Below, in pieces: positions 37,618-51,318 of a DNA stretch of 64,000 nt. Where the stretch lies: positions 160,001 to 224,000 of the forward strand of contig CAVQNG010000014.1 in assembly GCA_963713825.1 (NCBI GenBank), written 5' to 3'. Position 1 is the first letter of the stretch. Every line of letters begins with the position of its first letter. The DNA is from an uncultured Acidobacteriota bacterium. GTDB taxonomy: Bacteria; Acidobacteriota; Thermoanaerobaculia; Multivoradales; JAHEKO01. The position numbers and the translations under genes were made by a program. The notes under the pieces were generated by a model, which searched no databases, had not been told where the DNA came from, and saw only the letters and a program-made list of their open reading frames with translations.

Positions 37618-38940
<1,323 letters not shown>

Positions 38941-39806: not shown

Positions 39807-39896
39807 AACTCAAGGCGATTGCACCGTTGACAAGCGCTTCGTCGTAAATGCGTCGCCGCGGTGCCGATAGGCAACTTGAAACCACGGGAGGGCGGC

Positions 39897-40220
39897 ATGA
39901 GGTATTGGCGAGTTCCTCTGGACGCGGGGCAGGTCGAGACCCCCGGGGGGGAGGTGCACATCCTCGTGGACCGATGCAAGGGCTGCGCGTTCTGCGTCGA
40001 GTACTGCCCCAGGCAGGTCCTCGAGATGTCACGGACTTTCAATCGCAAGGGCTACCATCCACCAGAGATCGTCGCAAGCGGGGCCTGCGTCAACTGCGGG
40101 CTGTGCGAGATGATCTGCCCCGAGTTCGCCATCTTCTGCATCGAGGCGGTGAGCTCGGCTGGGAATCCAAACGGAGTCTCCACATCTGTAGGTGCCGAGG
40201 CCGGGGAGGCGCGTCGATGA
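39897..40220 (+). CDS. 2-oxoacid:ferredoxin oxidoreductase delta subunit (2x[4Fe-4S] ferredoxin)
   Basis: CKGCAFCVEYCP and CVNCGLCEMICPEFAI; GGGAGG RBS; stop overlaps the alpha-subunit start (ATGA). Confidence 0.92.
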   Translation: MRYWRVPLDAGQVETPGGEVHILVDRCKGCAFCVEYCPRQVLEMSRTFNRKGYHPPEIVASGACVNCGLCEMICPEFAIFCIEAVSSAGNPNGVSTSVGAEAGEARR

Positions 40221-41374
40221 AAGCCGACCCGGCAGGTGTGCTTACTGGCTCTCATTACCTCGATGGTGACTTCGCTTGCGGCGAAGGGGCCATGGCGGCT
40301 GGCTGCCGATTCGTCGCCGGCTACCCGATCACCCCATCCACCGAAGTTGTCGAGCGCATAGCCAGGCGATTCCCGACGATCGGAGGCACCTTCATCCAGA
40401 TGGAGGATGAGTTGGCGAGCATGGCTGCCGTCGTCGGCGGGGCATGGACAGGTAGCAAGACCATGACGGTGACCAGTGGTCCGGGCTTCAGCCTCATGAT
40501 GGAGAACATCGGACTGGCCGCCATGATGGAGACGCCCTGTGTCGTCGTCAACGTGCAGCGAGGTGGGCCTTCCACCGGGCTGCCGACAATGGTTGGGCAG
40601 GGGGACGTGATGCAGGCCCGCTGGGGCTCTCATGGAGACTACGAGGTGATCGCCTTGAGCCCTCAATCGCCCCAGGAAGCCTTCGACCTCACAATCGACG
40701 CCTTCAACTTGGCCGAGATCTACAGAGTTCCCGTCATGTTCTTGATGGACGAATGTGTCGGGCACATGACTGAAAAGGTGGTGATTCCCAAGGCGGAGGC
40801 GATCGATATCGAACCCCGGCGACTGACCAGGAAGAAGCCGGAGGACTTCGATCCCTATCAGGTCTCCGACAACGAGCTGCCGGAGTTCGCCCGCGCCGGA
40901 GACGGCTACCGATTCCATACCACCGGTTTGACACACGATGAGCACGGCTATCCGGTGATGAGCGCCAAGTGCCAAGAGGTCAACGTGGGCCGCCTGGTCG
41001 GGAAGATCCGCGACAATGCAGAGAGCATCGTCCGCTTCGAAGAAGATGGGGTAGAGGATGCGGATGTTGTTGTCGTGTCCTACGGCATCACAGCCCGGGT
41101 GGCCAGGTTGGCAGTCGAGGAAGCGCGCGCGCAGGGCCTCAAGGTGGGCTTCCTTCGCTTGGTGGTGATCTGGCCGTTTCCGGAGAGGCGGATACGGCAG
41201 ATCGCAGGTTCCGTTGGCGCCTTTGTCGTGCCGGAGATCAACTATGGACAGATCGCTCTGGAAGTGGAGCGCGCCGCGGCTGGACAGGCCGTTACCTGGC
41301 CGGTCCACCATGCGGGCGGTGCCGTGCACTCGCCCGATGCGATCACTGAGATTATTGTCAAGGCGGCCGTATGA
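40217..41374 (+). CDS. korA: 2-oxoacid:ferredoxin oxidoreductase alpha subunit (2-oxoglutarate/KorA-like)
   Basis: GYPITPS, QMEDE, TSGPGFSLM.E and VQRGGPSTGLPT motifs. Substrate is inferred from context. Confidence 0.9.
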   Translation: MKADPAGVLTGSHYLDGDFACGEGAMAAGCRFVAGYPITPSTEVVERIARRFPTIGGTFIQMEDELASMAAVVGGAWTGSKTMTVTSGPGFSLMMENIGLAAMMETPCVVVNVQRGGPSTGLPTMVGQGDVMQARWGSHGDYEVIALSPQSPQEAFDLTIDAFNLAEIYRVPVMFLMDECVGHMTEKVVIPKAEAIDIEPRRLTRKKPEDFDPYQVSDNELPEFARAGDGYRFHTTGLTHDEHGYPVMSAKCQEVNVGRLVGKIRDNAESIVRFEEDGVEDADVVVVSYGITARVARLAVEEARAQGLKVGFLRLVVIWPFPERRIRQIAGSVGAFVVPEINYGQIALEVERAAAGQAVTWPVHHAGGAVHSPDAITEIIVKAAV

Positions 41375-42270
41375 CTGTGGCAACGAATCCGACTGGCAGC
41401 CAGGAGCGGGAGCACCCGAGTGCGCCGCTCTTGAGGATGGAGCGCATTCCGCATGTCTGGTGTCCGAGCTGCGGTATCGGCACGGTGGTCAAGTGCTATG
41501 CCACGGCGCTCGAGCGCAGCGGCGTGGATCTCGACAAGGTCTCGGTGGTGTCGGGCATCGGCTGCTCCGGCCGCGTCGCCGGCTATCTCAAGCTGGACGG
41601 TTTTCACACGACCCATGGAAGGGCCATTCCTTTTGCCACAGGGCTCAAACTGGGACGTCCCGAGCTGCTGGTAACCGTGATTTCAGGTGACGGTGACCTC
41701 GTGGGCATCGGCGGCAATCACTTCATTCACGCGGCACGCCGCAATATCGATCTGTTGGTCATCCTGATCAACAACTTCATTTATGGGATGACTGGGGGAC
41801 AAAACGCTCCGACGACGCCCCCGGGTGCTAGATCCTCGACGATGCCTTTGGGAAATTTCGAGACTCCTTTCAGTCTGCCCCATCTAGCGGCATCGAGCGG
41901 TGCCTCCTATGTGGCCCGTTGGACCTGCCTTCACATTCGCCGTCTCACCTGGTCGATCGAGGAGGCCATAGGCAAGAGGGGCTTCCGCTTCATCGAGGTC
42001 ATCGCGCCCTGTCCGACTCTCTACGCCCGCCTGAACAAGCTGGGATCAGGGCTCGATGCCATGCGCTTCTACCACGACACGGCCGAGATCCGGAACGGCG
42101 CCGACACTCGTGAGGTCGACGTCGAGTTCCAAAGCCCGATCATCTGCGGCAAGTTCGTCGACGAGGAGCGACCGACCTTCCTCGATCTGATGCACGACCA
42201 CTACAGCAAGCAGCTGGGTGATCGCTATGTTCCGATGCCGCCGGAAGGAGGAATGCTCCATGAGCGGTAG
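41371..42270 (+). CDS. korB: 2-oxoacid:ferredoxin oxidoreductase beta subunit (TPP-binding)
   Basis: WCPSCG, SGIGCS, HTTHGR, TPP motif GDGD...NN.IYGMTGGQ and PCPT. Confidence 0.92.
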   Translation: MTVATNPTGSQEREHPSAPLLRMERIPHVWCPSCGIGTVVKCYATALERSGVDLDKVSVVSGIGCSGRVAGYLKLDGFHTTHGRAIPFATGLKLGRPELLVTVISGDGDLVGIGGNHFIHAARRNIDLLVILINNFIYGMTGGQNAPTTPPGARSSTMPLGNFETPFSLPHLAASSGASYVARWTCLHIRRLTWSIEEAIGKRGFRFIEVIAPCPTLYARLNKLGSGLDAMRFYHDTAEIRNGADTREVDVEFQSPIICGKFVDEERPTFLDLMHDHYSKQLGDRYVPMPPEGGMLHER

Positions 42271-42853
42271 GACCGAGATCCGGATCACCGGCTTCGGAGG
42301 GCAGGGTGTGGTGCTCGCGGGCCATATCATCGGTCGCGCCTGCGCCATCCATGCGGATCGTCAGGCCACGATGATCCAGAGTTTCGGGCCGGAGGCCAGA
42401 GGCTCAGCCTGCAGTGCCACTCTCGTAGTCTCCGACCGCGAAGTCTTGTACCCGTATATCCAGCGTCCCGACATTTTTGTCGTGATGTCCTCGGAAGGCT
42501 ATGAGAAGTACGGGCGGGAGCTCAAAGAGGATGGGACCCTGGTTTTCGAGCAGGATCTTGTCCATCCCAGGACGGTGGAAGGGCAGCGGTACTTTGGAGT
42601 GCCTTCGACGCGCATCGCGGAGTCGTTGGGCCGGACGATCGTCCAGAACATCGTCATGGTGGGCTTCTTCGCCGGCGTCACCGATCTGGTTCCCGAAAAT
42701 GCTGTGCGCGACGCGGTCAAGGGGTCGGTACCAGCTGGTACCGAGGATCTGAATCTGGAAGCCTTCGAAAAGGGGCTGGAGTACGCCCGAGAATCGGTCG
42801 ATCAGCCATCAGTGAACGTCACCAGGCCAAGCCTCGAGGAGGTGAGCCCATGA
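42260..42853 (+). CDS. 2-oxoacid:ferredoxin oxidoreductase gamma subunit
   Basis: GFGGQG, QSFGPEARG, NIVMVG and N.EAF..G. Confidence 0.92.
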   Translation: MSGRTEIRITGFGGQGVVLAGHIIGRACAIHADRQATMIQSFGPEARGSACSATLVVSDREVLYPYIQRPDIFVVMSSEGYEKYGRELKEDGTLVFEQDLVHPRTVEGQRYFGVPSTRIAESLGRTIVQNIVMVGFFAGVTDLVPENAVRDAVKGSVPAGTEDLNLEAFEKGLEYARESVDQPSVNVTRPSLEEVSP

Positions 42854-45261
42854 CTGGGCCTGTTTGTCAGCTCGGAGCTGGTGCTCTCAATTTGGATGGC
42901 TGCAGTCTGTTGATTCCCGATGTGCAGTCCGAGCCGCTGCCGATCCTGCCGGTCGAACCGGCCCCCTGCACTCAGGCATGTCCCGCGGGCATCAACGTCA
43001 AGGCCTACGTCTCGCTGATCGCCGAGAGCCGGTTTGCAGAAGCCCTGCAGGTAGTTCGGCAACACTGTCCCCTGCCCGGAATCTGTGGTCGGATCTGTCA
43101 TCACCCATGTGAAGCGGTATGTCGCCGGGGAACCGTCGATGAGCCTATCGCTATCCGCGCCTTGAAGCGATTCGTCGCTGATCTCGCGGTTGCTGAGGCT
43201 CCACCTGCACCCTGGCCACTAGTTGACCAGGAAGCCAAGGTGGCAGTCGTAGGGTCTGGTCCGGCGGGCTTGACTGCCGCTTACGACCTGCGTCGCCTCG
43301 GGTATCCGGTGACGATCTTCGAAGCCGAGCCGGAGGCTGGAGGCATGCTGCGCTATGGAATCACCGAGTATCGGCTGCCCAGGGATGTTCTGGATACGGA
43401 GATCGGGTATCTCAGCGGGGTCGGTCTCAACTTTGAGACCGGTTGTCGCGTCGGGGTGGACCTGCAGTTGGAAGAGATGCTGGAGCAGGGCTTCGTGGCG
43501 ACCTTGCTGGCCGTGGGCGCTCAGCGCGGACGCCCTCTGAGAGTTCCTGGATCTGAGTCCTGTGCAGGAGTCGAGGATGCTCTGGCCTTCTTGCGTCGCG
43601 TCAACCACGGTGACCGATCGCTGGTAAGGGGTCGAGTCGTGGTGATCGGCGGCGGCTCGACAGCGGTCGAGGCGGCACGCTCGGCACTGCGCCTCGGCGC
43701 CGACTCCGTGGACATACTCTACCGGCGGTATCGTGAGGAGTTGTTGGCTGATGAGGAGGAGATCCGGGCAGCGGAGTCGGAGGGCATTGCGTTCAGATTC
43801 CTGGTGGCTCCAACTCGCCTGATCATGGGAGACGGGACTCTTCAGGCCCTGGAGTGCGTGAGGGTCGGACTGGGAGAACCAGATGCCTCGGGCCGGCGCA
43901 GACCCATCCAGATTCCAGGCAGCGAGTTCAGGGTAGAGACAGACCGAGTCCTGGCCGCTATCGGTCAGGCGGCCGATCTTGATTTCATGCCTCCCGAGAT
44001 CCTGTCACAACTGACGGAGAACGAATTGTTGCGGACCGATCCGCTGACAGCGATGACAGGCCTGCAGGGAGTTTTCGCGGCTGGCGATGCTGTCTCAGGC
44101 CCAGCGACGGTTATCGATGCTATCGCCGCCGGTCACAAGGCCGCCGAGGCGATTCATCACTATCTGGAGGAGGGCAGGCCCTCGATAGCATCGCAGCCGC
44201 CGGAGATGCGGGCACCGGTGGAATACGGTCTACCTGATTCACCGCCAGTGACCGCGGAGAGGGGTCGTCCTGAGCTCCGAAGCGTCAAGTCGGGCGCCGA
44301 ATTTGCGGAGGTGGAGAGGCCTTTCGAGAAAGCCGAGGCTGTGGACGAGGCGAGACGGTGCCTGCGTTGTGGGCCTTGCGGCGAGTGTCGTGTGTGCGCT
44401 CCTTCCTGCCGCCGACGCCACGTCCTGCTGCGGTTTCCCGATGGCGATGGAGCTGTCAGCCGGAGCCCGGTTCTGCTGCGAGCTCCAGGCAACGTCGCCA
44501 TGGGATTGAGCACTCGATCGACGGCACAGGCCCAGTTGTTGCCCGAGAGCCGTCCTCGGCTGCTGAGGGAGGTGTCGGCGAGCGAAGGTGACCTCGTGGA
44601 GATCGCGCCATTGAGGGTGCAGATTGTGGAGGAGCAATGTCGGGGGTGCGGTCGCTGTGTCGAGGTCTGTCCGTTCGATGCAATCACGATGAGCGGTACA
44701 GAGCCGGAGCGCACCGCTCGCGTCGAGCCCTCACTCTGCCGCGGCTGCAACCTCTGCTGCGCTGTCTGTCCAACTGCAGCTGCGGAGCCCAATGCCCTGT
44801 CTGTTGCCTGGTGGGGATCCAGGCTGTCCGACGCTTTCGACGGTCGAGCCGAGGCGGTCCATGAAGCCGGGCCCATCGTGGTTCTCGCATGTCAAAGGAG
44901 AGCTGGATCGGTGGAGCCGACCCTCTATCAACACTCAGCCCACGTCGAGGTGATCCGGTTCCGCTGTGTCGGCCAGGTCGATGCCGGGATGCTGGTCGAG
45001 CTCTACCGCAGAGGGGCGAGCAGCGTGCTCGTTGCCGGCTGCCAGACCGAGCGTTGTCGGTTCGGCGAGGGCGCCCAACTGGCTACCGAGCAGGTGGCCA
45101 GGGCGGAGAGGTTGATCTCCGTGATGGGGGGTGGCGCCAAGAGTCTGAGGTCGGATTGGTCTGAGGACCGAGCCGGCGACCCCATCGAGCTGCCCGTTCT
45201 ACGCATGATCGCGGAAGTCTTCGGGGCGCGTCCGGGCCTTTCCGGGCGAGAGCCCTCTTGA
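42850..45261 (+). CDS. FAD/NAD(P)H oxidoreductase (GltD/NfnB/SudA-like) fused to [4Fe-4S] ferredoxin and C-terminal MvhD-like [2Fe-2S] domains
   Basis: PC..ACP and CGRIC..PCE..C (Fer4_20); GSGPAG (FAD); GGGSTA and YRR (NADPH-type); FAAGD; RCLRCGPCGEC..C; CRGCGRCVEVCP and CRGCNLCCAVCP; C-terminal LAC...RFRCVGQVD...VAGC..E.CRF. Confidence 0.9.
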   Translation: MTGPVCQLGAGALNLDGCSLLIPDVQSEPLPILPVEPAPCTQACPAGINVKAYVSLIAESRFAEALQVVRQHCPLPGICGRICHHPCEAVCRRGTVDEPIAIRALKRFVADLAVAEAPPAPWPLVDQEAKVAVVGSGPAGLTAAYDLRRLGYPVTIFEAEPEAGGMLRYGITEYRLPRDVLDTEIGYLSGVGLNFETGCRVGVDLQLEEMLEQGFVATLLAVGAQRGRPLRVPGSESCAGVEDALAFLRRVNHGDRSLVRGRVVVIGGGSTAVEAARSALRLGADSVDILYRRYREELLADEEEIRAAESEGIAFRFLVAPTRLIMGDGTLQALECVRVGLGEPDASGRRRPIQIPGSEFRVETDRVLAAIGQAADLDFMPPEILSQLTENELLRTDPLTAMTGLQGVFAAGDAVSGPATVIDAIAAGHKAAEAIHHYLEEGRPSIASQPPEMRAPVEYGLPDSPPVTAERGRPELRSVKSGAEFAEVERPFEKAEAVDEARRCLRCGPCGECRVCAPSCRRRHVLLRFPDGDGAVSRSPVLLRAPGNVAMGLSTRSTAQAQLLPESRPRLLREVSASEGDLVEIAPLRVQIVEEQCRGCGRCVEVCPFDAITMSGTEPERTARVEPSLCRGCNLCCAVCPTAAAEPNALSVAWWGSRLSDAFDGRAEAVHEAGPIVVLACQRRAGSVEPTLYQHSAHVEVIRFRCVGQVDAGMLVELYRRGASSVLVAGCQTERCRFGEGAQLATEQVARAERLISVMGGGAKSLRSDWSEDRAGDPIELPVLRMIAEVFGARPGLSGREPS

Positions 45262-45272
45262 GGAGTGGAGCG

Positions 45273-46460
45273 ATGAGAGACCTCATCCAGCTCAAGCAAT
45301 CGACGCATGCCGCACTCTGCCTGGAGTGCGGCAAGTGCAGCACGATGTGTCCGCTGGCCCGCTTCGGAGGGTTCTCGGCAGCTCGCATGATGTCGATTCA
45401 GGACCCGGAGGCGGAGATTCACGGCCATGCGGCCGCGGTCCAGCGCTGTCTGACTTGCGGCGCCTGTGAGGTTCGTTGTCCGCAGGGCGTTCGTTACACG
45501 GAGTTCATTCTTGGATTGCGGCCCGAGCTGCCTGAAGAGACCCGATGGTCTTGCCCGCATGGAGCGGTGTTTCAGGAGTCCGCTCGCTGGGCTGCGGATG
45601 GGGCGGTCAACGGGCGCAATACCGCTTGGCTGGAAGACGACCTGTTGGTTGCCGAGGAGGGGGAAGTCGGGCTGTTCGTCGGTTGCCTACCTCTTTTCGA
45701 TGTCGTTTTCGGGACGGAACTGGAAGTACGCATGGTGGAGATTGCGCGCGCCGCCATCAGACTCCTGAACCACTTTGAAATCGAGCCGGTAATTGTGACG
45801 GACGAGCGCTGCTGTGGCCATGACCTCCTGTGGAGTGGTGAGGAGGAGGCTTTCGAGAAGCTGGCTGTGGCGAATACGACCGCTTTTCAGGAGCGGGGTG
45901 TGCGCCACCTCCTGACAACTTGTGCCGAGTGTTGTCGCACCTGGAGCCTCGACTACCCGCGGTATGTGGAGACCTATCAACCTCGAGTGCAGCATCTCTC
46001 GGAGTTCCTGGCGGAGCGCGTGGAGCGCGACGAGATGAGCTTCCGAGATCTCGGGGAGGCCGGCGTCATGACGTTCCACGATCCGTGCAGGCTGGGCAGA
46101 CAGCTGGGGGTCTTCGACGCCCCGAGGATCGTAATGAACTCCCTACCGGGAAGTGAAGTCGTAGAGATGGAGCGATCGGGCGCTGATGCACAGTGCTGTG
46201 GCACTCCCGGTTTCATTCAGTGCAATCGGGACTCGCGACGGCTGCAAGCCCAGAGACTGGAGAGCGCAGCGGCGACGGGCGCCACCAAGCTGGTCACCGC
46301 TTGTCCGAAGTGTTTGATTCACTTTCGGTGTGCCCAGGCCGAGGATCGTCTCAATGAACGGCAGGGCGCAGGGATTCAGATCCAAGACCTCACGGTCCTC
46401 GCCGCGAGTCTGCTGGCGACAAAGAGAGAAGCGGAGAAGGATTCACCGTCAGAGTGCTAG
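45273..46460 (+). CDS. Soluble heterodisulfide-reductase-like Fe-S protein (HdrD/HdrBC-like: 2x[4Fe-4S] + two CCG domains)
   Basis: CLECGKCSTMCP and CLTCGACEVRCP; FVGC...CCGH...CAEC and HDPC...CCG...CPKC; no TM helices. Confidence 0.9.
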   Translation: MRDLIQLKQSTHAALCLECGKCSTMCPLARFGGFSAARMMSIQDPEAEIHGHAAAVQRCLTCGACEVRCPQGVRYTEFILGLRPELPEETRWSCPHGAVFQESARWAADGAVNGRNTAWLEDDLLVAEEGEVGLFVGCLPLFDVVFGTELEVRMVEIARAAIRLLNHFEIEPVIVTDERCCGHDLLWSGEEEAFEKLAVANTTAFQERGVRHLLTTCAECCRTWSLDYPRYVETYQPRVQHLSEFLAERVERDEMSFRDLGEAGVMTFHDPCRLGRQLGVFDAPRIVMNSLPGSEVVEMERSGADAQCCGTPGFIQCNRDSRRLQAQRLESAAATGATKLVTACPKCLIHFRCAQAEDRLNERQGAGIQIQDLTVLAASLLATKREAEKDSPSEC

Positions 46461-46475
46461 AGACAGGAGAGGTTC

Positions 46476-48956
46476 ATGACAGACCAAGCCTTGCGAATCG
46501 GTGTCTTCGTTTGCGATTGCGGACTGAACATCGCCGGCACAGTGGATACAGAAGAGGTAGCACGCTTTGCCGCCGACCTTCCCGATGTGGTCGCCGTGGT
46601 GCGCAATCGCTACACCTGCGCCGATCCGGGGCAGAACGAAATCAAGAAGGCCATCGCGGAGCACGATTTGAACCGGGTCGTGGTGGCATCCTGCACCCCG
46701 AAGATCCACGAACCGACCTTCCGCCACTGCGTGGCGGACACCGGGCTGAATCCCTATCTGGTCGAGATGGCCAACATACGAGAGCACTGCAGCTGGGTTC
46801 ACATTCAAGACCGGGAAGCGGCCACCGAGAAGGCGAAGGACCTGGTCCGCAGCGCGGTCGGGCGATCTCGGCTGCTGGAGCCTCAAGACGAGAAGATCTT
46901 CCCAGTGACGGACGCGGCGCTGGTGATCGGCGGCGGCGTGGCTGGCATCCAGGCGGCTCTCGAGCTGGCTGATGGTGGCCACCAGGTTTACCTGGTGGAG
47001 AAGGAACCCTCCATCGGCGGGCTCATGGCTGCGCTGGACAAGACATTCCCGACCATGGACTGCTCTATATGAATTCTCGGCCCTAAAATGATGGATGCCG
47101 GTCGGCATCCCCGCATCGAGTTACTGGTTGATTCCGAGGTCGAGAACATCACGGGCTTCGTAGGGAACTACAACGCCCAAGTACGTCGCCGCGCTCGCTT
47201 CGTCGACAGCGACGAATGCACCTCTTGTGGTGAATGCGAGAAAGTCTGCCCTGTGACCGTTGCTGACGAGTATCAGCAGGGCCTCTCTTCGCGCAAGGCC
47301 ATCTACCTACCTTTTCCGCAGGCAGTGCCTTCGGCCTTTAGCCTCGATGCCGAGTCCTGTCTGGGTTTCAATCCGATTGCCTGTGGCAAGTGCCTCGAGG
47401 TCTGCGACAAGAAGTGCATCGATTTCGATGCCACGGACGAGATCCGCGATCTCGAAGTGGGGACGGTCGTCGTTGCTACCGGAATGGAGGTCTACGACCC
47501 GCGAGAGAACGACGAGTACGGCTATACGCGATTCCCGAACGTCGTCACCAGCATGGAATTCGAGAGGTTGATCAACGCTGGTGGACCCACGGATGGAGAG
47601 TTGGTCCGACCTTCCGACCGCGAGGTGCCTTTGCGGGTCGGCTTCGTTCAGTGTGTCGGCTCTCGGTCCCTCCAACGCGGCGTGCCCTACTGCTCGAACA
47701 TCTGTTGCATGAATACGATCAAGGAGACGCTGCTGCTGGCAGACCATTTCCCGGAGAGTCGATCAACGGTCTACTACATGGATATCCGGGCCTTCGGCAA
47801 GGGCTTCGAGGACCTGTATCGGCGAAGTCGTGAGGCGGGCGTGCGCTACGTCAGAGGATTGCCTGGCAACGTGAGAGAGGCGCCCGAGTCCAACGACCTC
47901 ATCGTCGAGGTCGAGAACACGCTCACCGGAACGATGGAGGAGCATCGACTCGACATGCTGGTTCTGGCGGTAGGGATGGTGCCGCGGCGATCTAACGGCG
48001 ACGGCAAGCGAAGCATCGACGAGATCCTGAGCCTGTCGCACACCTCGGACGGTTTCGTCATGGAGGCCCACCCCAAGCTGAAGCCGGTCGATGCTCCGAC
48101 CCGCGGGGTCTATTTTGCCGGCTGCGTCGAGTCACCCAAGGACGTCAAGGACTCCGTTACCCAGGCAGGTGCCGCTGCCGGCAGAGCGGGCAACCTGTTG
48201 GGTGGCGGACAAGTGCGAATCGAGGCCATCACGGCGACGCTGGATGCGGATCGCTGTCAGCTCTGCACCATTTGTGCTCGTGTCTGTCCGTTTCACGCCA
48301 TCGAGCAAGCGGATAAGAAGAAGGGTCTTCTGCCGCAGTTCGTCGAGGCGGCCTGCGCGGGTTGCGGTACCTGCGCGGCGGAGTGTCCATTCGATGCCAT
48401 CGACATGCGTCATTTCGCTGACAGCCAGGTCCTGGCCCAAATCGATGGCATCTTGGCCGACAATCCGCTGCAGAAGATCGTCGGCTTCGCGTGCAACTGG
48501 TGCTCTTACGCGGGCGGGGATAACGCCGGAACCTCACGCCTCCAGTACCCGGCATCCGTTCGCCTCATCCGCACCATGTGCAGCGGCAGAGTCGACCAGG
48601 CCTTTATTTGGCACGCCTTTCGGAAGGGAGCGCCGCTGGTGTTGGTGTCGGGCTGCCACTTTACAGACTGCCATTACATCGACGCGGTGACTTGGACGCA
48701 GAAGCGAATAGAGAAAATCTGGTCGAAGATGGAAAAACTCGGCATCCGCCCCGAACGACTCCAGTTGGAGTGGATCTCGGCGGCGGAAGGTCAGAAGTTC
48801 GCTCGCGTCATGCAGGAGCTGGACAGCATGCTGCGGCAGGTAACGCCAAAGGAGGTCGAGGAGGGCATGCGAATTCTCGCCGAGGAAGACCTGGGAGCTG
48901 GTGTTCCCAAACTCCCGAAGAAGCGTAGAGAGCCGGTTCTCCCGATCCAGAACTGA
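46476..48956 (+). CDS. hdrA: Heterodisulfide reductase subunit A (HdrA) fused to MvhD; probable selenoprotein (Sec199, TGA at 47070-47072), 826 aa
   Basis: ORFs 46476..47072 and 47088..48956 are in one frame, separated only by TGA within [18 protein letters not shown] (canonical DC..CIL.P.M). HdrA motifs [34 protein letters not shown] and GC..SPKD; ferredoxin inserts; C-terminal MvhD (CNWCSYAG...MCSGRVD...GCHFTDCHY). Confidence 0.92.
47088..47116 (+). promoter_or_regulatory. Putative bacterial SECIS element
   Basis: Perfect hairpin GGATGCCG-GT-CGGCATCC (47093-47110; equivalently a 7-bp stem with GGUC loop), apex about 28 nt after the UGA. Possible lower pairing of ATG 47088-90 with CAT 47114-16. 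Confidence 0.75.
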
Positions 48957-48979: not shown

Positions 48980-49174
48980 ATGGCCAAGCAGATCAAGACG
49001 TTCTACTGTCTTCGCTGCCAGCATCGTTTTGCGATGGGTCATGACCCCAAAGAGGTGGTGGAGCGCAGCTGTCCACGATGTGGCAGCAACAGCGTCAGAT
49101 TGGAGACACCACAGGCTGCTGCCAGTCAAGCCTCTTTGGGGACGAGCAAAACCGGAAAAGGAGGGGTTGTATGA
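48980..49174 (+). CDS. Small zinc-ribbon/rubredoxin-like protein (FmdB-like)
   Basis: FYCLRC...CPRCGS; AGAGGG RBS; stop overlaps the next start (ATGA). Confidence 0.75.
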   Translation: MAKQIKTFYCLRCQHRFAMGHDPKEVVERSCPRCGSNSVRLETPQAAASQASLGTSKTGKGGVV

Positions 49175-49644
49175 CGACAGTGGTATCCCAAAAGTGGATC
49201 GACGATGTCCTCGAGGAGCACAAGAGGCTTCGGGTGATGATTGCCGAGGTGCGACAGATCCTGACCGAGCCGAGGCCGGATGCCGGCCAGCCTGGAGCCC
49301 ATTCCTGGGCCGCCGATCTTTCGGTGCGTCTGGTCAGGCTCCATGACGAGCTGTTTCGCCACTTTCGCTTCGAAGAGTCCATGGGGCTAGTGGAAGATGT
49401 CATCGAGCGCCATCCTCGCGCTCTGGCAAGGCTCGAGGCGATCGTTGGCCAGCACCCGGACATGCTGCGTGACCTCAGGTCGATCATGACTGACGCTCTG
49501 ACCTACTCAGAGGGAAGCCTGCCGGAGGATCCTCGACTGCGGCAGAGGACGTTGACCTTGCTCGATGAGCTGCATCAGCACGAGCAGGAGGAGACCGACC
49601 TGTTTCAACGCCTGGAGTATCGAGACCAAGGCGCGATGGACTGA
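49171..49644 (+). CDS. Hemerythrin-like (HHE cation-binding) protein
   Basis: Helical protein with EEH, HF..EE, QH and HE..E metal-ligand pattern; GGAGG RBS. Confidence 0.8.
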   Translation: MTTVVSQKWIDDVLEEHKRLRVMIAEVRQILTEPRPDAGQPGAHSWAADLSVRLVRLHDELFRHFRFEESMGLVEDVIERHPRALARLEAIVGQHPDMLRDLRSIMTDALTYSEGSLPEDPRLRQRTLTLLDELHQHEQEETDLFQRLEYRDQGAMD

Positions 49645-49858: not shown

Positions 49859-50743
49859 ATGGCGACAAAGGAACAATTCGTGGACACCTTTGTGGAGCTG
49901 ATACGGCGGGCATCGGCCGAGCTGCCGCCCGATGTCGTAGCGGCTCTCGAGCAGGGTAGGGACCAGGAAGCGACAGAGAGCCTGGCGCGCCAGGCACTGG
50001 TCACGATTCTCGACAATGTCGAGCTGGCCAAAGCCAAGTCGGCGCCGATCTGTCAGGACACAGGCACCCCCGTGGCCTGGGTCAGCTATCCCGAGGGGAC
50101 TAGCACCCGCTTGCTCGAACAGGCTATGCACGAGGCGGTCAGGGAGGCGACTGCCAAGAGTTATCTGCGTCCCAACGCCGTCGATACGCTGACGGGAAGA
50201 AACACCGGTGATGGCTCGGGCCGAGCCATTCCATTTCTGCATTTCGAGGAATGGGACGAGCCGAGGGTCGAGGTGCGACTGATCCTGAAGGGCGGGGGCT
50301 GCGAGAACGTCGGTGTGCAGTACAAGCTGCCTGATAGTGGTCTCCAGGCGGGGCGAGATCTGGAGGGCGTTCGACGGGTTGTTCTGGACGCGGTCGTCCA
50401 GGCCCAGGGAAAGGGCTGCGCTCCCGGCGTCCTGGGTGTCTGCATCGGAGGGGATCGGGTATCGGGATTCTCGGAGTCCAAATGTCAGCTTCTGCGTCCA
50501 CTCTCTGACACCCATCCGGTGCCGGAGTTGGCCGCAATGGAGGAGCGGTTGCTGAAGGAAGCCAACGAGTTGGGGATCGGCCCGATGGGGTTTGGCGGCC
50601 AGACCACGGTTCTGGGAGTCAAGATCGGTGTTCTGGACCGTCTGCCAGCTTCGTACTTTGTGACCATCAGCTACATGTGTTGGGCTGATCGGCGAGCCGC
50701 TGTCAGCCTCGACGAGGAAGGAGCGGCGACATGGCTGAACTGA
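49859..50743 (+). CDS. Class I fumarate hydratase / L-tartrate dehydratase alpha subunit
   Basis: PICQDTG, LRPN, KGGGCEN, GC.PG, N.LGIGPMGFGG.TT and CWA.RR. Confidence 0.92.
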   Translation: MATKEQFVDTFVELIRRASAELPPDVVAALEQGRDQEATESLARQALVTILDNVELAKAKSAPICQDTGTPVAWVSYPEGTSTRLLEQAMHEAVREATAKSYLRPNAVDTLTGRNTGDGSGRAIPFLHFEEWDEPRVEVRLILKGGGCENVGVQYKLPDSGLQAGRDLEGVRRVVLDAVVQAQGKGCAPGVLGVCIGGDRVSGFSESKCQLLRPLSDTHPVPELAAMEERLLKEANELGIGPMGFGGQTTVLGVKIGVLDRLPASYFVTISYMCWADRRAAVSLDEEGAATWLN

Positions 50744-51318
50744 GCCTGCCTGTGGACGAAAGGACGGTGCGGGAACTGAAAGTAGGTGATGGTGTCGAGT
50801 TGACAGGCCGCATGATCACCGGCCGCGATGCCGCCCACAAGTGGTTGCTGGAGGACTATCGTGAAGAGGTAGCCCCCTATCTCGAGGGAACTGTCATCTA
50901 TCACTGCGGTCCGGTGGTGCGTCAACTGGACGATGGCACCTACGAGTTCGTGGCTGCTGGCCCCACGACCTCCATTCGAGAGGAGCCCTATCAGGCCGAT
51001 GTGATCGAAAAGTACGGTCTGAGAGGGGTCATTGGAAAGGGCGGCATGGGGCTACAGACTCTCGCTGGCCTCGAGAAGAGCGGTGCCCTGTATCTGCACG
51101 CTGTTGGTGGGGCGGCGCAGGTCCTGGCCCAGGCGGTACGGAAGGTCGAGCGAGTCTTCATGCTCGAGGAGTTCGGGGTTCCCGAAGCACTATGGGTCAT
51201 CGACGTGGTCAGGTTCCCCGTCATGGTGACGATGGATGCTCGGGGTGGATCGCTCCACACAGAGGTCGAGAAGAGCTCGAAAGCGCAGTTCGAGCGGCTA
51301 CTCGCCACGACAGCGTGA
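50731..51318 (+). CDS. Class I fumarate hydratase / L-tartrate dehydratase beta subunit
   Basis: GRDAAH, YHCGP, AGPTTS.R, IGKGGM, G.PEA and D..G.SL. Confidence 0.92.
   Translation: MAELSLPVDERTVRELKVGDGVELTGRMITGRDAAHKWLLEDYREEVAPYLEGTVIYHCGPVVRQLDDGTYEFVAAGPTTSIREEPYQADVIEKYGLRGVIGKGGMGLQTLAGLEKSGALYLHAVGGAAQVLAQAVRKVERVFMLEEFGVPEALWVIDVVRFPVMVTMDARGGSLHTEVEKSSKAQFERLLATTA

Follow-up and report, generated by a model that had tools for sequence, protein, structure and literature searches.

The stretch analysed here (the window) comprises 64,000 nucleotides (nt) of contig CAVQNG010000014.1 from an uncultured Acidobacteriota bacterium (assembly GCA_963713825.1). It contains a gene for an HdrA-MvhD fusion protein, here called hdrA2, in which a TGA codon lies in frame at a position where selenocysteine (Sec) is probably inserted. 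The gene and its features, including a candidate selenocysteine insertion sequence (SECIS), are located as follows, in positions of the window.

46466..46471, forward strand: Shine-Dalgarno-like AGGAGA, a few bases 5' of the ATG at 46476
46476..48956, forward strand: coding sequence hdrA2(Sec)-mvhD, based on the reading frame, Pfam, NF040770 and the 5odc_A and 5odc_D alignments; its own terminal stop is also TGA
47070..47072, forward strand: putative Sec-UGA codon (U199), the counterpart of Cys197 in the solved HdrA
47093..47110, forward strand: candidate SECIS hairpin GGAUGCC-GGUC-GGCAUCC (stem 47093-99 / 47104-10, loop GGUC 47100-03, -11.5 kcal/mol)
48477..48839, forward strand: MvhD/FlpD domain fused to the HdrA C-terminus, residues 668-788 (PF02662, E 7e-45; 5odc_D, E 3e-39)

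The frame runs from the ATG at 46476 to the terminal TGA at 48954-56 and is interrupted solely by the TGA at 47070-72. Translation of the open reading frames (ORFs) revealed no other stop and no frameshift within 46476-48956, in agreement with the initial annotation of the window, which had described two same-frame ORFs split by a single TGA. With this TGA read as Sec (U), the joined product has the proposed length of 826 amino acids (aa), with U at residue 199 in the context MDCSI-UGA-ILGP. TGA is the commonest stop in the window, where it terminates 26 of the 43 ATG-initiated ORFs of at least 250 aa (an uncurated count), and it also ends hdrA2 itself; decoding at 47070-72 would therefore be context-dependent and not the result of an altered genetic code.

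With C standing for U, the joined protein scored 1144 bits against NCBIfam NF040770 (HdrA2; cut-off 1100). Residues 6-662 aligned to HdrA of the HdrABC-MvhAGD complex (5odc_A, E 1.2e-229) and residues 667-796 to MvhD of the same complex (5odc_D, E 3.2e-39). Pfam analysis gave a start typical of flavin adenine dinucleotide (FAD)-binding Rossmann proteins, several 4Fe-4S ferredoxin motifs and a C-terminal FlpD/MvhD domain. The HdrA core is present, with its N-terminal cluster domain, FAD/thioredoxin-reductase-like domain and two ferredoxin domains, and is followed by the C-terminal MvhD. By homology, the joined product is an HdrA2-type HdrA-MvhD fusion, where HdrA2 (NF040770) is a class assignment and the family name is not to be taken as the function in this bacterium.

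In both printed structure alignments, the UGA column aligned with cysteine (Cys), which is Cys197 by counting back along 5odc_A. A protein database search was then used for a wider comparison, with the 89 matches of at least 780 aa treated as full-length and the remaining 31 as shorter. Among the 120 matches listed, Cys occupied the TGA column in 89/89 full-length homologues, the named ones being Chloroflexota, so that the TGA does fall in a Cys column of HdrA, as had been anticipated. Cys197 of one HdrA is described as a ligand to the N-terminal Fe-S cluster of the partner HdrA (PMC9012536), and HdrA of Methanococcus maripaludis has Sec197 at the corresponding position, for which a Cys-Sec selenylsulfide relay was suggested and the role called unresolved (PMC13518236). 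What these papers and PMC1794560 say on HdrA backs the background on which the initial annotation had drawn, namely that this Cys serves an Fe-S cluster and is replaced by Sec in Methanococcales and some Deltaproteobacteria.

The TGA is retained among relatives of the source genome. In 41 related genomes, exactly one TGA was found in 9/9 site-covering matches, and a script placed it at the same codon. Among 401 sampled genomes of the phylum, HdrA was matched in 99 (E <= 1e-80); each of the 19 rows at 63-100% identity had one TGA at MDCSI-TGA-ILGP, and a paralogue clade of 11 loci with 44-51% identity had Cys (DCSQCILTP). A genome collection with one genome per species, scanned with an alignment of the Cys forms, returned 80 loci, and the motif was present in 78 of them, with 60 TGA, 12 TGT and 6 TGC codons. 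Overall, the TGA form was found in 85 related loci (hereafter Sec-form loci), at least two of which are duplicate genomes.

The codons around the UGA had been noted as unusually AT-rich, which proved to be only partly specific to the Sec form. ATA before the UGA was dropped as a Sec-specific feature, as it was found in 76/85 Sec-form loci and also in 10/18 Cys-form loci. The part that stood is the A directly after the UGA, present in 85/85: the codon at 47073-47075 encodes Ile (AUN) in 85/85 Sec forms versus Val (GUN) in 17/18 Cys forms. This A may reflect a context requirement for recoding or against termination.

The hairpin downstream of the UGA

A perfect hairpin had been reported just after the TGA, with a stem of 8 base pairs (bp) and a loop of 2 nt. 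The inverted repeat at 47093-47110 is real, but it forms a 7-bp stem with a 4-nt loop. The published model of bacterial SECIS elements, as given in PMC13188914, comprises a loop of 3-9 nt on a stem of 4-16 bp, a G at one or both of the first two positions of the loop, a UGA-to-loop distance of 16-37 nt and an energy of <= -7.5 kcal/mol. The size of the loop (GGUC) and that of the stem are within these limits, the loop opens with GG, the UGA-to-loop spacing is 27 nt (47073-47099), and the energy of the 18-nt hairpin (-11.5 kcal/mol) is below the limit. The earlier assignment to the bacterial SECIS type, with a G at the start of the loop, is thus in line with all four published criteria.

The hairpin resembles the prototype SECIS of Escherichia coli fdhF in being a short hairpin 3' of the UGA inside the ORF, with a G opening a small loop. 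The apical loop of fdhF is also GGUC, with G23 and U24 contacting SelB. At 27 nt after the UGA, the loop of hdrA2 is farther away than that of fdhF, and the 7-bp stem shows no evident bulged U, which is a further difference from fdhF.

Conservation of the segment was analyzed at the nucleotide level in 9 orthologues from 5 genera, which aligned without gaps over 388 codons (1164 nt). Merely 51 of the 247 degenerate codons with an invariant amino acid were also invariant in nucleotides. The longest invariant stretch was 24 nt at +18..+41 from the UGA (47088-47111), the runner-up being 9 nt, and a run of six invariant degenerate codons was attained in 121/10000 shuffles. In 26 Sec-form loci (24 distinct rows), the stem was 98.8% paired, compared with 24-57% when the partner columns were slid, and the apical loop GGUC was unchanged in 26/26. 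Two compensatory pairs were observed in the 24 distinct rows, from C-G to U-A (6 rows) and from G-C to C-G (2 rows).

The collection scan extended this picture. Of its 60 TGA loci, 46 had 7 contiguous pairs and 13 had 6, at the same offset, and the one outside this set (L075) had a single C.A mismatch; the loop was GGUC in 59 and GGUA in 1. The 18 Cys-codon loci (TGT/TGC), by comparison, had 0-3 contiguous pairs and encoded the same MMD[VA]GRHP peptide with varied synonymous codons. As the Cys loci code for the same peptide without the hairpin, the hairpin tracks the TGA and not the peptide. Judged by this comparative evidence, the conservation and pairing of the hairpin are beyond chance.

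Decoding of the UGA and its alternatives

The presence of a Sec-decoding system in the host had been inferred in the initial annotation, and the source genome (5.42 Mb, 38 contigs, 96% complete) does encode selA, selB, selD and tRNA-Sec. The tRNA-Sec scored 69.2 bits (cut-off 47) and was recognized by ARAGORN as tRNA-SeC with anticodon tca. Matches above the cut-offs were obtained for SelA (354.7 bits), SelB (353.1 bits, in a 665-aa frame that extends to the C-terminal winged helix) and SelD (339.5 bits). An in-frame TGA at the classical Sec position is also present in the SelD gene itself (G000:C25:839157-840080, L011; context TGG-U-AAK) and in the gene for the formate dehydrogenase alpha subunit FdhA (G000:C1:366055-368073, L141; 778 bits; context AAT-U-HAPTV). 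In both genes, a hairpin with a G-rich loop comes after the TGA (loop GGG in one, GGUCU in the other). SelA was also detected in 5/5 other tested genomes with TGA-form HdrA2. When tested, the Sec trait showed no link to HdrA2: SelA was also present in 5/5 same-family genomes without an HdrA2 match, which indicates that the Sec trait is general in the family.

We consider it very probable (about 0.93) that hdrA2 is a single gene for a Sec-containing HdrA2-type flavoprotein with a C-terminal MvhD, in which the UGA is read as Sec. The single 826-aa selenoenzyme first proposed for this locus is supported by the Cys column, the SECIS criteria, the Sec genes and the 85 TGA loci. Translation would start at 46476, and the hairpin GGAUGCC-GGUC-GGCAUCC, 27 nt past the UGA, would recruit SelB with Sec-tRNA(Sec) at the UGA at 47070-72. 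Sec would be inserted at residue 199, and translation would proceed to the ordinary stop at 48954-56. Sec199 would replace Cys197 of methanogen HdrA and, going by what the published structures describe, may adjoin the partner protomer's N-terminal [4Fe-4S] cluster, either ligating it or belonging to a Cys/Sec redox pair.

If instead the UGA were a real stop, the locus would be a split gene or pseudogene, with a 198-aa N-terminal fragment and a separately started 622-aa protein. An ATG is available for the latter at 47088, and the 622-aa ORF is found in 29 clusters of public gene calls: of the 31 shorter database matches, 29 are 622 aa long and start with MMDAGRHP, one is 613 aa and one 567 aa. 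The 622-aa fragment corresponds to the ORF called from the ATG at 47088, so public gene calls do cut hdrA2 in two, as had been predicted for automated pipelines. Nothing comparable to the AGGAGA upstream of 46476 was found as a Shine-Dalgarno-like sequence before the ATG at 47088, which is the start chosen by the gene callers. The break sits exactly at the invariant Cys column, the hairpin accompanies TGA and not TGT or TGC, and the genome has the full Sec machinery. Retention of the TGA over 63-100% protein identity and several phyla is unexpected of a pseudogene, and no second lesion was seen in the gene. A split gene is accordingly very unlikely.

Alternatively, the UGA could be read as Cys, Trp or Gly by near-cognate or suppressor decoding, with the hairpin as a general stimulator of read-through and not a SelB-binding SECIS. 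Cys functions at this position in many homologues, and the identity of the inserted residue is deduced from sequence. Against this, the hairpin fits the SECIS model, including the G at the start of the loop, a SelB with the C-terminal winged-helix domain is encoded, and two further genes in the genome have a TGA at classical Sec sites. Global reassignment of the codon does not apply, as TGA is the commonest stop in the window. We regard insertion of another residue as very unlikely.

Public sequencing data were also consulted. Contigs of two DNA and two RNA-library runs (four studies) had no alternative letter at 47070-72, where their summed depth in the four runs was about 5 to 29, and none at 47088-47111, yet nearby synonymous third positions vary. 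The TGA is one letter from a Cys codon, and nothing else was found in favour of an assembly or sequencing error for TGC or TGT, which is ruled out for practical purposes by the TGA in the 85 loci of separate assemblies and in the contigs of the four runs. The checks on the TGA that the initial annotation had proposed, made here on contigs of public runs and on relatives, thus came out in its favour.

The RNA-library contigs X15 and X17 cover parts of the gene only, for the most part the conserved UGA-hairpin segment, and each piece has 5-9 differences. These contigs are largely from relatives and were not counted as proof of expression. In the two metatranscriptome-library runs, the summed depth peaked at 47057-47139 (X17: 55 versus 0-13 elsewhere), where short contigs of many relatives stack on the ultra-conserved UGA-hairpin piece.

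Several points weigh against a selenoprotein at this locus or lessen the evidence for it. The 67-nt segment with the hairpin folds at -16.4 kcal/mol, which is not beyond chance compared with shuffled sequences (z = -0.44); this measure is not informative where a short hairpin lies in GC-rich coding sequence, and the case was therefore built on comparison. Rfam gave no SECIS family match for the window at the gathering score, and its sole match to 47040-47160 at E up to 10 was an unrelated sRNA on the opposite strand. The hairpin arms code for a D-[AV]-G-R-H-P peptide that is conserved in the Cys forms too, so that the nucleotide conservation is partly at the protein level, and each of the compensatory changes also alters an amino acid (A to V; M/P to I/R). 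The compared loci are related, and two identical pairs are duplicates of one genome, so the counts overstate their independence. The RNA-library contigs are short, largely from relatives and no proof of transcription. The physiological partners and the substrate are deduced from gene neighbourhood alone, and Sec insertion and the full-length protein are inferred from sequence.

With the UGA read as Sec, the gene would code for an intact energy-metabolism enzyme and would be no pseudogene. The split call drops the N-terminal cluster domain and the start of the FAD-binding domain from metabolic reconstructions of sediment Acidobacteriota and many other anaerobes. The near-invariant hairpin and the MDCSI-UGA-ILGP context could serve annotators as a marker for automatic rejoining of the family. 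The gene would also indicate that electron bifurcation in these uncultured bacteria requires selenium, with Sec at a position whose role in methanogen HdrA, as cluster ligand or in a selenylsulfide relay, is still treated as open in a 2026 structure paper (PMC13518236). The finding leaves the understanding of how Sec decoding works unchanged.

Distribution and known relatives

Record and tree labels place the Sec form in Acidobacteriota (among them Thermoanaerobaculia, to which the window itself belongs), Chloroflexota, Zixiibacteriota, Ignavibacteriota, Calditrichota, Planctomycetota and Gemmatimonadota, and in metagenome-assembled genomes labelled as Bacteroidota and Myxococcota. A quick FastTree phylogeny without bootstrap was calculated from 109 rows, omitting five rows of <600 aa and L019. 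Here, 16 Cys forms made up one group (support 94) nested in a Dehalococcoidia clade that also holds Sec forms, and the paralogue clade was placed on the opposite side of the midpoint root. This topology suggests that the Cys forms arose from a single Sec-to-Cys conversion. We tentatively propose, at slightly less than even confidence, that Sec is ancestral and predominant in the bacterial HdrA2-MvhD clade, together with a single, nearly constant SECIS hairpin whose arms also serve as D-[AV]-G-R-H-P codons. If this is true, protein databases would systematically hold a widespread enzyme as two fragments, and the operon would code for an undescribed selenium-dependent complex joining 2-oxoacid oxidation, ferredoxin, NAD(P)H and a disulfide.

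Further Sec sites were considered in the paralogue loci L042, L048 and L050 and rejected, the TGAs being ordinary stops of an unfused hdrA followed by a separate mvhD. In the paralogue locus L043, the first stop is TAG.

Lists of selenoprotein families in bacteria and archaea have included HdrA since at least 2006 (PMC1794560, PMC13188914). The present gene is a fresh member of this long-known family, and its fusion is of the known HdrA2 type. Full-text literature searches yielded no description of the Sec-HdrA2 form, although supplementary tables may list it.

The Sec-HdrA of Methanococcales (M. maripaludis Sec197; Cys form 5ODC of Methanothermococcus thermolithotrophicus) is alike in fold and cofactor layout over residues 6-662. 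Its Sec, as described for these organisms, is at the equal position in the motif DCS-x-[C/U]-IL-x-P. MvhD is a separate subunit there and is fused in the present protein. The heterodisulfide of coenzymes M and B (CoM-S-S-CoB) is presumably absent from the Acidobacteriota host of hdrA2. Archaeal SECIS elements are located in the 3' untranslated region. The element of hdrA2 is a bacterial-type hairpin within the coding sequence directly after the UGA, unlike the archaeal elements as PMC13188914 describes them.

Zhang et al. 2006 (Genome Biol 7:R94; PMC1794560) reported HdrA with 16 selenoprotein members and catalogued bacterial ones in Deltaproteobacteria and Clostridia (such as Syntrophobacter, Syntrophus, Moorella and Carboxydothermus). 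These bacterial proteins belong to the same selenoprotein family and share bacterial Sec decoding with the present case. As described in that article, they are mostly encoded in operons of the glpC-hdrA-frhD-frhG-frhA type, with separate FrhD/MvhD and with hdrA-hdrA fusions, whereas the present locus has a single HdrA-MvhD fusion beside hdrCB-like, GltD-like and 2-oxoacid:ferredoxin oxidoreductase genes. The host phylum is not among the taxa named in the article, whose supplementary tables may list more.

The architecture of HdrA with a C-terminal MvhD-like extension is also that of HdrA2 from Methanosarcina acetivorans, as described in PMC6019823. HdrA2B2C2 of that organism is an F420H2- and ferredoxin-dependent bifurcating heterodisulfide reductase, and the bacterial HdrA2 homologues are described in the same paper as uncharacterised. 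In its putative Sec, the present protein differs from the 89 full-length homologues of the database search, which all have Cys. Judged by the neighbouring gene, the electron donor is also more likely NAD(P)H than F420H2.

Gene neighbourhood and likely function

hdrA2 is the last of a tightly packed row of genes, which has a MarR-type regulator at its start. The genes of interest on either side are:

39848..42853, forward strand: 2-oxoacid:ferredoxin oxidoreductase, encoded by three genes (POR_N/PFOR_II, TPP_enzyme_C, POR) that closely adjoin the hdr genes
42850..45261, forward strand: 803-aa GltD/NfnB-like NAD(P)H flavoprotein with 2x[4Fe-4S] ferredoxin and a second MvhD/FlpD domain
45258..46460, forward strand: hdrC/hdrB-like gene, 400 aa (4Fe-4S dicluster and two CCG domains), ending 15 nt before hdrA2
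48980..49174, forward strand: small 64-aa zinc-ribbon ORF immediately 3' of hdrA2 (PF09723 match of 22.7 bits, under the 34.4 cut-off)

Homologues of the HdrCB-like protein were encoded directly upstream in 25/25 Sec-form loci with flanking sequence. The gene for the 803-aa GltD-like fusion overlaps each of its neighbours by 4 nt, and a homologue was found at the expected place in 7/25 of these loci, with flanks that were often too short to tell. The GltD-like-MvhD fusion points to NAD(P)H as one partner for the Hdr module. Gene neighbours, homology and the analogous HdrABC-MvhD and HdrA2B2C2 systems (PMC6019823) suggest flavin-based electron bifurcation or confurcation, together with the HdrC/B-like protein, as the most likely function. 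Likely partners are ferredoxin, by way of the adjacent 2-oxoacid:ferredoxin oxidoreductase, NAD(P)H, by way of the adjacent GltD-like-MvhD protein, and a disulfide.

Downstream of hdrA2, a homologue of the zinc-ribbon ORF was present in 18/25 Sec-form loci, across several families, and its product may be an unrecognised small subunit or an assembly factor of the complex. Genes for citrate synthase (37618-38940, reverse strand) and class I fumarase (49859-51318) are close to the oxidoreductase and hdr genes, which hints at a link to a ferredoxin-dependent pathway of the tricarboxylic acid cycle type. A hemerythrin-domain ORF, as listed (49078-49644, forward strand), overlaps the zinc-ribbon ORF. 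As alignment with its homologues begins only at about residue 32-37, the true start of this hemerythrin-domain ORF probably lies near 49174.

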